Source: Acidobacteriota bacterium
Lineage (GTDB): Bacteria; Acidobacteriota; Thermoanaerobaculia; Multivoradales; J023
Length of the DNA stretch: 36,675 bases
Direction of reading: 5' to 3'
NCBI GenBank assembly: GCA_038530905.1
Contig: JBCBCF010000003.1
Coordinates: 1 to 36,675, forward strand
Shown here: positions 18,353 to 21,601 of the stretch, in pieces
Layout: every line of letters starts with the position of its first letter
How positions within the stretch are numbered: position 1 is the stretch's first letter
Translations under genes and position numbers: made by a program
The notes under the pieces: model-generated
Database searches by the model: none
The model's input: the letters and a program-made list of their open reading frames with translations, nothing else
Told to the model about the DNA's origin: nothing

Positions 18353-21300
18353 TCAGCTCAGGGCGCGCTCGATCAATTCATCCTGCTCACGGCGGTGCGA
18401 CGCCGCCGAGCCCGTCGCCGGGCTCGCTGACTCCGGACGGCTGACACAGGAGATCTGCCAGCGGTCGAAGATCCGGCCACCGTCGGTCAGACGCAGCTTG
18501 AGGAAACTCCAGGCGCCCATGTTGCGCGGCTCTTCCTGCACCCAAACAACCGGCGTGTCGTCGGCGTACGGCGCGAGCACCTCGAGCAGCCGATCTCGGT
18601 CGAGCGGGTAGTACTGCTCAAGGCGAATCAGCGCGACATCGGCGACCTTGCGTTCCTTGCGCGCAGCGTCGAGATCGTAGAAGACCTTGCCGCTCGTGAG
18701 GAGAACCTTGCGGGTCGCCGCCAGCTCGGGAGCGTCCGGATCCGCCAGGATCCGCCGGAACGAGTGGTCGGTGAAGTCTTCGAGCGGGCTTGTCGCCTCC
18801 GGCAGGCGCAGCAGGCTCTTCGGCGACATGACGACGAGCGGCTTGCGCAGCGGGCGCACGATCTGGCGCCTCAGACAGTGAAAGTACTGCGCCGGAGTGG
18901 TCAGGTTGACAACCTGCATATTGTCTTCGGCGCACATGTTGAGAAAGCGCTCAAGGCGGGCACTCGAGTGCTCCGGCCCCTGCCCTTCGAAGCCGTGCGG
19001 TAAAAGCATCACGAGGCCGGAGAGTCGCCCCCATTTGTCTTCGCTCGAGCTGATGAACTGGTCAACGATGACCTGTGCAGCGTTGACGAAGTCGCCGAAT
19101 TGCGCTTCCCACACCGTCAGCCCGTCCGGGGTGTCGAGGCTGTAGCCGTATTCGAAACCGAGCGGTCCGATCTCCGACAGCGGCGAGTCGAAGATCTGAA
19201 ACAGTGTCTCGCCGCCGTCGTCGCCGACATGCTGGAGCGGAATCCATCGGGAGCCGTCTTCGGTGTCATGCAGCACCGCGTGACGATGACTGAAGGTACC
19301 CCGCCCGGCGTCCTGGCCCGACACGCGAACGCGCACGCCGTCGGCCAGCAATGAGGCGAAGGCGAGGGCCTCGGCGCTTCCCCAGTCGAGCGGCCGGTCG
19401 CCCGCCGCCATCTCGCGCCGCTGATCGAAGAAGCGGCGCAGCTTGCGATGCAGGTGGAAGGTGTCAGGCACGTGGGAGGCGCGGCGCAGCAGCTCAGCGA
19501 GCCGCTCGCGGTCGAGCGCGGTCGACTCTTCCGCCGTGTCGGCGTCGAGCCCACCAGCGTAGCCTTCCCACAGGCCGGCGCCGGAGTCTTCAGAGCGATG
19601 ATCGCCCTCCTGACTGGCGTCGAGATGTGCCTGCAGCTCCTGCTGGCGGGTCTTTCGAATCTCTTTCGCCTCGGCGCGAGTAACCTCTTCGAGCTCGACC
19701 AGACGGTCGAGGTAAGCCTCGGGAACCGACTTGTGCTTGCGGATCACGTCGTACATCAGCGGCTGCGTGTACGACGGCTCGTCCCCTTCGTTGTGTCCAT
19801 GCTTGCGGTAGCAATACATGTCGATGATGACGTCGGTGCCGAACTCGGCGCGATAGGCCATCGCGAGGTCGACGACCCGCGCGACCGCCTCAGGGTCCTC
19901 GCCGTTGACGTGGAAGATCGGCGTCTGAAGCATGCGCGCCACGTCGGTGGCGTAGCGGGTCGAACGAGCGCTTTCGGGCGAGGTCGTGAAGCCGATCTGA
20001 TTGTTGACGATGATGTGCAGGGTGCCGCCGGTCCGATAGCCCTCGAGCTCGGACATGTTGAGCACCTCCTGCACCACACCCTCTCCGGCAAACGCAGCGT
20101 CGCCGTGAATCAAGATGCCCAGGCAGCGGCGGTGCTGCTCGTCCCCGAAACGATCCTGCTTCGCCCGAACCCGCCCCATGAGCACCGGATTGACGAACTC
20201 GAGGTGGCTCGGGTTGAAGCATAGGGACAGATGCATCGAGCGGCCGTCGGCGGCGCTGCGGTTCGAGCTGTAGCCGAGGTGATATTTGACATCTCCGGCG
20301 CCGCGAAAGCGTTCCGGGTCGTCGTCGGCGAACTCCTGAAAGACCGCCGCGGGGCTCTTGTCCATGATGTTGACCAAGACATTGAGCCGGCCGCGGTGAG
20401 CCATGCCGATCACCACTTCGTCCACGCTGTCAGCCGACGCCTCTTCGAGCGCCAGATCGAGCAGCGGGATCAGCGTCTCGGCTCCCTCGAGCGAGAACCG
20501 CTTGGCGCCGAGGAATTTCTTGTGGATGAACTGCTCGAATGCTTCCGCGTCGACCAGCTTGGTGTAGATCCGCAGCTGCTCGTCACGATGCAGGCGCCGC
20601 CGATTCGGCTTCTCGAGGCGATCGATCAGCCAGCGCTTCGGCTCGTAGGCATCGATGTGCATGAACTGCACGCCGATCGCGCCGCAGTAGGTCGCGCGCA
20701 GGCGATCGAGGATCTGGCGCAGCGTCAGCACCCCCGAGCCGCCGCCGATGTCGGTGGCCGAGAACAAGGAGTCGAGATCGTCCGCCGACAGCCCGTAGGA
20801 CTCCAACTCGAGCTCGGGAATCGACTCGCGGCGGCCGAGCAGCGGGTCGAGATCGGCCAGCAAATGCCCGCGCACCCGATACGAGTGGATCAGGCGATCG
20901 ACGCGATCCTGGCGCGAGCTGCGCAGCCGCATGCGGCCGGCCAAGACTTCGGCGATGTTGCGCGACAGCGTCGGCCAACCGTCCAGCAGGCGGTGGAATG
21001 GCTCGTGGTCGAGCCGCAGGAGGCGCACCGGCCCGTGTGCGACGACGTCCGCTGCGCGCGGCTGTCGATCGAGCACCGACAGCTCCCCCACCACCTCACC
21101 GGAGTTGATGGTGGCGATGGTGCCGCCCTCGCGCTGAATCACCAGATGGCCTTCGACGACCAGGAAGAGCGCGTCGCCAGCATCTCCCTCGCGAAAGAGG
21201 GCCTCGCCGTCGGCGAGGTCGATCTCGACCGTCAGTCGAGCGACGGCCTCGAGGGTCTCCGGGCCAACCGTGCGCAGGAGCTTGATCTTGCCGAGAAGCT

Positions 21301-21601
21301 CTAGGCGCTCGGTGCGCGCCGCGTCGGAGATCTTGGGCAGATCCGCCGGATCAAAGACCGCCGGCATCTCGACCGATGGTGCGGCCGCCGCCGACGGCGG
21401 ATCGAAGATACTCGACGGGCGAAAGCTCGGTCCGTCCACCGCGCGGCGGGCCGCGACGCGATCGCCGTCCTGCGTCGCGAGGCGAGCGAAATACTCACGC
21501 CAGCTCTCCTCGATCGAGTCGGGATTGTCGAGGTAGCGTGCGTATTGCTCCTCGACGAACGCCAGATTGCTGGTCGCGAATGGATCGGTGCTCTGCATCA
21601 T
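18353..21601 (-). CDS. sucA: 2-oxoglutarate dehydrogenase E1 with an inserted cyclic-nucleotide-binding domain
   Basis: N-terminal [27 protein letters not shown]; [34 protein letters not shown]...[21 protein letters not shown] and SASPATG motifs; cNMP domain at about aa 98-227. Confidence 0.97.
20921..21310 (-). other. cNMP-binding (CAP_ED/CNB) domain within SucA
   Basis: [11 protein letters not shown]...[20 protein letters not shown]...[21 protein letters not shown]...[13 protein letters not shown]...[11 protein letters not shown]. Confidence 0.92.

Follow-up and report, generated by a model that had tools for sequence, protein, structure and literature searches.

What does a cyclic-nucleotide-binding (CNB) domain do inside a tricarboxylic acid (TCA) cycle enzyme? 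The question is raised by a 36,675-nucleotide stretch of DNA (the window), which is one whole contig (JBCBCF010000003.1) from the genome of an uncultured marine member of the Acidobacteriota (4.4 Mb, 475 contigs, ~92% complete). In its sucA gene, encoding the E1 component (E1o) of 2-oxoglutarate dehydrogenase (OGDH), a CNB domain stands between the N-terminal segment and the thiamine diphosphate (ThDP)-dependent catalytic core. This arrangement had been described, and a direct cyclic-nucleotide switch proposed, in a sequence-only reading of the window. The open reading frame (ORF) list, the translation and Pfam agree with that reading on the gene itself: sucA reads without a break as one ORF of 1082 aa (18353-21601, minus strand) with a normal N-terminal motif and ThDP core, positions 20921-21310 correspond to aa 98-227, where Pfam places a cNMP_binding domain, and every peptide string quoted is present in the translation. 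The features of the gene are listed below, with the basis of each assignment in brackets.

18353..21601, minus strand: sucA (P0001), E1o with an inserted CNB domain, 1082 aa (ORF, NCBIfam PRK09404, Pfam)
21476..21577, minus strand: 2-oxogl_dehyd_N motif, presumed docking peptide for the E2 (E2o) and E3 components, aa 9-42 (PF16078)
21317..21475, minus strand: linker with a short conserved motif, otherwise poorly conserved, aa 43-95 (alignment, AlphaFold2 [AF2])
20921..21316, minus strand: complete CNB domain with N-terminal helices, beta barrel and B/C helices, aa 96-227 (PF00027, phmmer against the PDB, AF2, alignment)
21038..21100, minus strand: phosphate-binding cassette (PBC), aa 168-188 (conservation; fits the canonical PBC motif given in PMC2246266)
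20858..20974, minus strand: CNB C-helix, predicted to continue as the opening helix of the E1o small helical domain, and predicted dimer interface, aa 210-248 (AF2, dimer prediction)
18353..20920, minus strand: ThDP-dependent E1o catalytic core, aa 228-1082 (E1_dh, Transket_pyr, OxoGdeHyase_C; Foldseek)

The assignment to SucA is supported by several models. The cNMP_binding family (PF00027) matches aa 129-207 with an E-value of 1.2e-17 (64.1 bits versus a gathering score of 27.5) and spans positions 4-87 of the 89-position model. As the sequence-only reading had anticipated, this match falls between 2-oxogl_dehyd_N (PF16078; aa 9-42, E 2.2e-11) and the core families E1_dh (aa 354-663), Transket_pyr (aa 737-932) and OxoGdeHyase_C (aa 938-1081), and all four SucA-type families score above their cut-offs. 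Over the whole protein, the NCBIfam SucA equivalog PRK09404 reaches 1223.1 bits (cut-off 764) and TIGR00239 reaches 1056.4 bits (cut-off 770). Since the PRK09404 alignment (aa 228-1081 against model positions 75-916) starts only at aa 228, that is, at model position 75, about 135 extra residues must lie at the site where the domain had been located. Alignment with unfused relatives shows that the insert is a clean module in place of a short variable linker, situated between a conserved linker segment and the RQDRVDQLIxxYRVRGH helix. Core residues are invariant among 37 fused homologues. The linker preceding the CNB domain (aa 43-95) likewise has two invariant positions, G57 and P68, and four that hardly vary (P58, F60, S64 and F66). 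Judged by its sequence, the window protein is a SucA-family member bearing a domain of the canonical CNB family.

An apparent fusion of this kind could also be produced by a chimeric contig or by a gene call that joined a CNB gene to sucA, and the window does derive from a genome in 475 pieces. The same in-frame, five-domain architecture, however, was recovered in ~39 clusters (90% identity) in a word-indexed search with aa 1-300 as query; these clusters share 37-60% identity in the N-terminal region and some reside on contigs of 5.2, 9.3 and 12.2 Mb. A scan of one genome per species yielded 23 loci in which one match extends over both the CNB domain and the beginning of the core, and among 400 other sampled genomes of the window's phylum the CNB-core junction was present in three (G022, G176 and G282). 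In a library of 1.84 billion representatives, the ranking of which is dominated by multi-CNB proteins, a match was counted only if it formed one stretch that leaves the CNB domain and enters the core for 33 residues or more, and 13 of the best 150 were of this type, as judged from match extent. There is no break in GC content at the insert. Finally, a Logan contig from a run labelled as marine metagenome (X1) spans 20652-21800 with zero differences and bridges both CNB junctions; because X1 may be the source sample, this bridge does not count as independent support. Given that the fusion recurs in many independent assemblies and that the Logan contig crosses the junctions, we reject misassembly and give the artefact virtually no credence.

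On genome sequences, the CNB-SucA architecture is thus genuine, rare and phylogenetically patchy. All 23 fused species-level genomes are metagenome-assembled genomes (MAGs), with no cultured isolate among them, and their labels comprise Acidobacteriota (including Thermoanaerobaculia and Holophagae), Myxococcota/Myxococcales/Bradymonadales and two Acidiferrobacterales. In a core-only FastTree phylogeny of 102 rows (38 fused, 58 unfused and 6 OdhA-type), from which the insert columns were excluded, the fused rows require 4 label changes, versus a mean of 30.8 after shuffling. This tree omits a 682-aa fragment (P0013), a 779-aa SucA without the C-terminal domain (P0117), non-SucA CNB proteins (P0042, P0047, P0086, P0096, P0102, P0110, P0112) and the other carriers of PF00198 (P0099, P0103, P0109, P0111, P0113-P0115, P0118, P0119). 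A second FastTree of 48 rows comprised the window, 21 of the 23 fused loci (L016 and L027 lack the anchor pattern) and 26 unfused sequences, leaving out L067 and L073 as too short, CNB-only loci and several unfused loci; here the 22 fused rows need 2 changes, versus 16 when shuffled. Phylum labels are intermixed inside the fused clade of the 48-row tree, reflecting either gene transfer or unreliable MAG labels. The pattern is probably due to an old, single fusion event and a small number of later losses; on these two FastTree inferences, a single origin is compatible with the data rather than proven.

The fused gene also occupies the genomic position expected of a principal OGDH. Directly downstream of sucA, on the same strand, lie the genes for the other two components of the complex:

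16960..18342, minus strand: sucB, E2o, dihydrolipoyl succinyltransferase (Pfam Biotin_lipoyl, E3_binding, 2-oxoacid_dh)
15467..16876, minus strand: lpdA, E3, dihydrolipoyl dehydrogenase (Pfam Pyr_redox_2, Pyr_redox_dim)

Among the 23 fused loci, sucB follows in 17 and lpd in 12. The fused sucA product is the only OxoGdeHyase_C match found in the source genome, which is ~92% complete, so that no second SucA was found there. Pfam assignments of the neighbours and this search bear out the view that the gene belongs to a sucA-sucB-lpdA operon and probably encodes the main OGDH; from its sequence and setting, the fused SucA can be taken as the organism's main, working E1o.

The ligand pocket of the inserted domain is well preserved. 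In isolation, residues 89-238 match the CNB-B domain of PKA RI-alpha (E 1e-21), PKG (3e-17) and Mycobacterium CRP (2e-11) in a phmmer search of the PDB. Among 37 aligned fused proteins, the PBC residues G172, E173 and P181 are present in all, and R182 and A184 in 36 each. G142, the beta2-beta3 loop glycine equivalent to PKA Gly169, which lines up with the latter of the two glycines in the PKA RI-alpha sequence G-D-E-G-D, is kept in 35. With a mean pairwise identity of 0.72 (core 0.68, entire CNB domain 0.48, linker 0.36), the cassette is the best-conserved part of the domain, and its pattern across the family, G-E-L-x-x-L-x-x-x-P-R-[SA]-A, is canonical. According to PMC2246266, the PBC arginine holds the phosphate of cAMP in place, and in families that bind cAMP it is conserved jointly with Gly169. 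The ligand-contact residues of the CNB domain hence look to be under constraint, and the canonical fold with Gly-Glu and Arg in the cassette that had been read from the window holds for the family at large (G172, E173 and R182, conserved in 36 or 37 of the 37).

The sequence-only reading went one step further and took R-A-A in the cassette as a cAMP-type signature. The window does have R-A-A, but this is a minority form: the residue after the arginine is Ser in 29 of the 37 sequences, Ala in 3 (the window among them), Ile in 3, Val in 1 and Thr in 1, and because the consensus is R-S-A the equation of R-A-A with cAMP fails as a family trait. Threonine at this position is a mark of PKG; we consider the residue, judged on these alignments, uninformative on cAMP versus cGMP in bacteria. 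Its variation (S, A, I, V, T) could fit a pocket for a different ligand, either some other nucleotide or a metabolite from the 2-oxoglutarate node; such pockets occur in some CRP-family CNB folds. NtcA, for instance, binds 2-oxoglutarate in a CNB-like domain. According to PMC2246266, CNB folds have evolved toward further ligands, such as heme in the CooA family, and families sensing other ligands have non-canonical cassettes. The cassette here is canonical, the Gly169 equivalent is kept and the nearest solved relatives are true cAMP/cGMP binders, all of which argues against a different ligand, a possibility that we regard as very improbable.

A likely source for a canonical ligand is encoded in the same genome. 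The only class III cyclase found there is a 578-aa FHA-GAF-cyclase fusion (L094:1502-3238, minus strand, corresponding to ~23501-25237 of G000 contig C11). Its substrate positions are occupied by Lys (in DKFIGD) and Asp (in DYTVLGNTVN), which we take to denote the ATP type and hence cAMP production. Class III cyclases are also present in all three other fused genomes examined (G022, G176 and G282), and the source genome contains 17 PF00027 matches. On these sequence grounds, we infer that cAMP is the likely ligand of the SucA CNB domain. As a side observation, the FHA domain on the cyclase hints at an input from Ser/Thr phosphorylation into cAMP synthesis, and it echoes the FHA-based control of OGDH by OdhI in actinobacteria.

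How might ligand binding be communicated to the enzyme? In the AF2 model, block pLDDT values are 76-89 over aa 91-220, with strands between aa 125 and 198 followed by helices at 199-208 and 210-248, as expected of a beta barrel with B and C helices. DSSP analysis of the model assigns one continuous helix to aa 210-248, in which the CNB C-helix becomes the first helix of the core; the prediction thereby agrees with the earlier description of a C-helix running directly into the core, with a dip in confidence at the junction. Residues at this junction are conserved (R223 and R225 in 36 of 37, Q231 in 37 of 37). The best Foldseek match of the model is the SucA of V. vulnificus (6km9, E 7.9e-68). 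Two copies of aa 88-262, predicted together with cAMP riding along, gave a score of 0.44, versus 0.00 for the best of three controls; the mark applied is reached by 20 of 30 solved homo-pairs and by 1 of 23 solved single chains. The dimer runs share at least 76% of their contacts, with a partner pLDDT of at least 77, and place C-helix residues 213/217/220/224 in a symmetric interface in which each PBC touches the partner C-helix. The pair so modelled is the CRP arrangement. E1o is an obligate dimer, and a paired sensor feeding two helices into two cores would therefore be an attractive route of transmission.

The position of the insert allows for a different output. Being located directly after the conserved docking motif and the conserved linker segment, and preceded by a stretch predicted to be disordered (aa 57-80, pLDDT <50), the domain could, on binding a cyclic nucleotide (cNMP), change the length, rigidity or exposure of the tether, and with it the loading of E1o on E2o or the reach of the lipoyl arm. 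In mammalian E1o, according to PMC11436768, it is the N-terminal linker that binds the E2o core and E3, the main body contributing little. The predicted continuity of the C-helix with the core helix and the conservation of R223, R225 and Q231 speak against this reading, since together they suggest a rigid coupling to the core and not a mere spacer. An effect on assembly in place of catalysis is the leading alternative; it is in our view unlikely, albeit worth reckoning with, and the two outputs are not mutually exclusive.

We lean, without great assurance, towards the CNB domain being a cAMP-gated allosteric module that acts on E1o activity. Under this model, an ancient domain insertion would have put a canonical CNB domain between the docking peptide and the ThDP core. 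cAMP made by the FHA-GAF class III cyclase would bind the PBC via Gly172-Glu173 and Arg182, and binding would reposition the B and C helices, just as it does in CNB proteins elsewhere. Within the E1o dimer, both CNB domains would pair in CRP style through their C-helices, and the signal would pass mechanically along the continuous C-helix into the core, shifting E1o in one direction or the other between less and more active forms. As a secondary effect, the docking peptide may present E1o differently to the E2o core. That an E1o core can be switched is known from OdhA, a relative whose core moves between a resting and an active state and which acetyl-CoA activates and OdhI inhibits (PMC10415282); this counts for an allosteric reading. 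A more ambitious version, to which we give somewhat less than an even chance, has the second messenger gating the TCA enzyme directly, with cyclase-derived cAMP acting on a CRP-like CNB dimer clamped on the E1o dimer and OGDH flux being switched at the carbon/nitrogen branch. In that version the FHA-GAF cyclase is a likely target of Ser/Thr-kinase signalling, and the whole would do in cis what the actinobacterial PknG-OdhI-OdhA circuit does.

A number of observations weigh against such a gate. First, the pocket is not uniform. In 4 of the 23 fused loci (L017, L018, L022 and L032) the PBC arginine is replaced by Trp; in L017, L018 and L022 the beta2-beta3 glycine has changed as well, to Ala or Ser, and L032 starts past that position. 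In the 48-row tree all four group in a single starred clade, adjacent to the subclade of the window. Because this clade has replaced the phosphate-anchoring arginine, canonical cNMP binding is not kept everywhere. Second, the unfused SucAs P0039 and P0041 are nested among fused ones, and since they are unfused within the fused clade the module has apparently been lost in them. Taken with the Trp subclade, these two relatives indicate that the module is dispensable or remodelled in some lineages. Third, fused and unfused forms can coexist in one genome: G022 has an unfused copy besides a pair of fused SucA matches, of which one is truncated at the end of its contig (C222, C227 and C59), and G282 has one fused and one unfused SucA (C63 and C16). 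The duplicates of G022 may reflect a strain mixture, since this genome is 83% complete with 3% contamination; G176 has the fused form only. Fourth, the structural predictions have weaknesses. For the full-length protein, AF2 gives a model of mediocre quality (mean pLDDT 72.1, pTM 0.58), and pLDDT falls to 62 at the very helix junction that would carry the signal (block aa 221-230). Foldseek alignments to solved SucA chains have TM scores of 0.36-0.50 with an rmsd of ~22 Å, on account of which the domain packing of the model is not trusted and only its local secondary structure is used here. The dimer prediction employed a custom alignment and a riding ligand, unlike the calibration of the tool, in which small molecules are unscored, and its favourable score may stem from CRP-type dimers of known structure that the model has memorised. 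Fifth, the preference for cAMP over cGMP derives from the cyclase residues alone, through the rule assumed above, in a 92%-complete genome.

Some of these observations would also fit a CNB domain that is blind to ligands and whose role is structural, in dimerisation or in the docking of another protein, its fold being kept by descent. The Arg-to-Trp subclade, which lacks the co-conserved glycine as well in the three loci covering that position, the apparent loss of the domain in P0039 and P0041, and a predicted CNB-CNB dimer that could be ligand-independent all point this way. Yet the window and 36 of the 37 aligned homologues keep every canonical contact residue, the cassette is the part of the domain that has changed least, a pattern not easily accounted for unless a ligand is bound, and the Trp variants are, from their placement in the tree, a single derived event. 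We consider a ligand-blind domain distinctly unlikely. The Trp clade represents a natural loss or re-tuning of the pocket, the window itself keeping the canonical residues; were the enzyme directly gated, this subclade would be a natural rewiring or loss of the switch.

Comparison with known systems places the proposed module more precisely. The window SucA shares its N-terminal motif, ThDP core and sucA-sucB-lpdA operon with E. coli-type SucA (PRK09404, TIGR00239; structures 2jgd and 6km9), which has a short variable linker where the window protein has the CNB domain of ~135 residues; none of the solved SucA chains listed by Foldseek is named as carrying a CNB domain. With CRP/FNR proteins it has in common the CNB fold and a C-helix serving as dimerisation helix and signal conduit, with symmetric C-helix contacts predicted here. 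Its C-helix, however, leads into an enzyme core and not into a helix-turn-helix DNA-binding domain; the NCBIfam CRP model matches it weakly (E 1.4e-05, 24.7 bits versus a cut-off of 266), and because there is no helix-turn-helix family among its Pfam matches it is not a CRP-family regulator. The closest solved sequence is CNB-B of the PKA regulatory subunit, with a near-identical cassette (G-E-x-x-x-L-x-x-x-P-R-A-A-x-V-V-A-x-G-P), but PKA regulatory subunits have tandem CNB domains and regulate a kinase in trans, whereas SucA has a single CNB domain acting, if it does, in cis. Mycobacterial Pat (NCBIfam NF058543), a cAMP-regulated protein lysine acetyltransferase, likewise combines an enzyme domain in cis with a CNB domain at its N-terminus; in Pat, cAMP relieves autoinhibition, the best-known precedent for a cAMP-gated bacterial enzyme. 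The catalytic partner in Pat is a GNAT, whereas in the window protein it is a ThDP enzyme, and NF058543 matches the window CNB domain with E 4.8e-08 (32 bits versus a cut-off of 460).

The OdhA/KGD enzymes of actinobacteria are the nearest parallel in layout. In both cases an extra domain lies N-terminal of the same E1o small helical domain; in OdhA/KGD, as proposed here, the 2-oxoglutarate node is under signalling control through a core with resting and active states. The sequence-only reading had pointed to the E2-like domain in the analogous position, and the PRK12270 (OdhA/KGD) model, positions 396-1239 of which align to aa 228-1081, agrees with the layout given in PMC10415282, where the E2o domain and a 17-residue linker come just before the small helical domain. 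The OdhA extra domain is, in contrast, a catalytic E2o acyltransferase, and regulation is exerted in trans by a phospho-dependent FHA protein. PF00198, which the OdhA-type matches of the word-indexed search carry, is absent from the Pfam matches of the window SucA, which for that reason is not OdhA-type. By analogy, the window SucA would, as proposed, work most like Pat, and conceptually it also resembles the OdhI/OdhA circuit.

The remainder of the window and the wider search yielded further observations. The genes neighbouring sucA on the upstream side, and other frames elsewhere in the window, are:

21665-23677, minus strand: 670-aa polytopic membrane protein (P0127) without a Pfam match, directly upstream of sucA
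23742-25472, minus strand: 576-aa GDSL-family hydrolase adjoining P0127
25544-27250, plus strand: 568-aa fusion of a receiver domain (aa 107-217) and a Ser/Thr protein kinase (aa 248-510)
2141-6292, plus strand: 1383-aa ORF, the longest in the window
12624-13997, plus strand: 457-aa protein with an MshEN domain, unrelated to the CNB-SucA finding
10057-12468, minus strand: 803-aa protein with many TPR repeats, likewise unrelated

The pair formed by P0127 and the GDSL hydrolase is syntenic in L014, L017, L018 and L022. The receiver-kinase fusion lies ~4 kb upstream of sucA in divergent orientation, and any link between it and the FHA-cyclase is speculation. CNB domains resembling that of the window also occur in non-SucA frames of ~1040-1115 aa in many genomes of the phylum (e.g. 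G263:C103, G313:C4, G130:C12, G015:C36); these may be the HEAT-repeat/TLC-transporter CNB proteins P0086, P0102 and P0110, and would then constitute another CNB-fusion family.

In line with the sequence-only reading, whose author was aware of no characterised example, searches of open-access papers in PMC and of bioRxiv found no description of a CNB-SucA fusion. The 2007 census of CNB domains (PMC2246266) contains neither 'dehydrogenase' nor 'oxoglutarate' in its text, and its supplementary family tables could list architectures. CNB-SucA thus emerges from the genomic data as a real, conserved, rare and apparently uncharacterised architecture, and a regulatory meaning of its CNB domain is plausible.

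OGDH stands at the branch between TCA energy flux and nitrogen assimilation via 2-oxoglutarate. Transcriptional control is one of the known ways in which bacteria regulate it. Control by small RNAs (PMC9731577) has also been described, as has, for actinobacteria, joint control through acetyl-CoA and the FHA protein OdhI/GarA (PMC10415282). Should the regulatory proposal be false, the family would remain a conserved and unexplained insertion in a textbook enzyme. Natural control variants exist in the Arg-to-Trp and domain-loss forms. If the proposal is true, the module would offer a compact, ligand-switchable unit for engineering TCA flux, and CNB-SucA, unlike the modes of control just named, would represent a new class of bacterial cAMP effector, in which a second messenger controls a central metabolic enzyme post-translationally, with no transcription factor in between.

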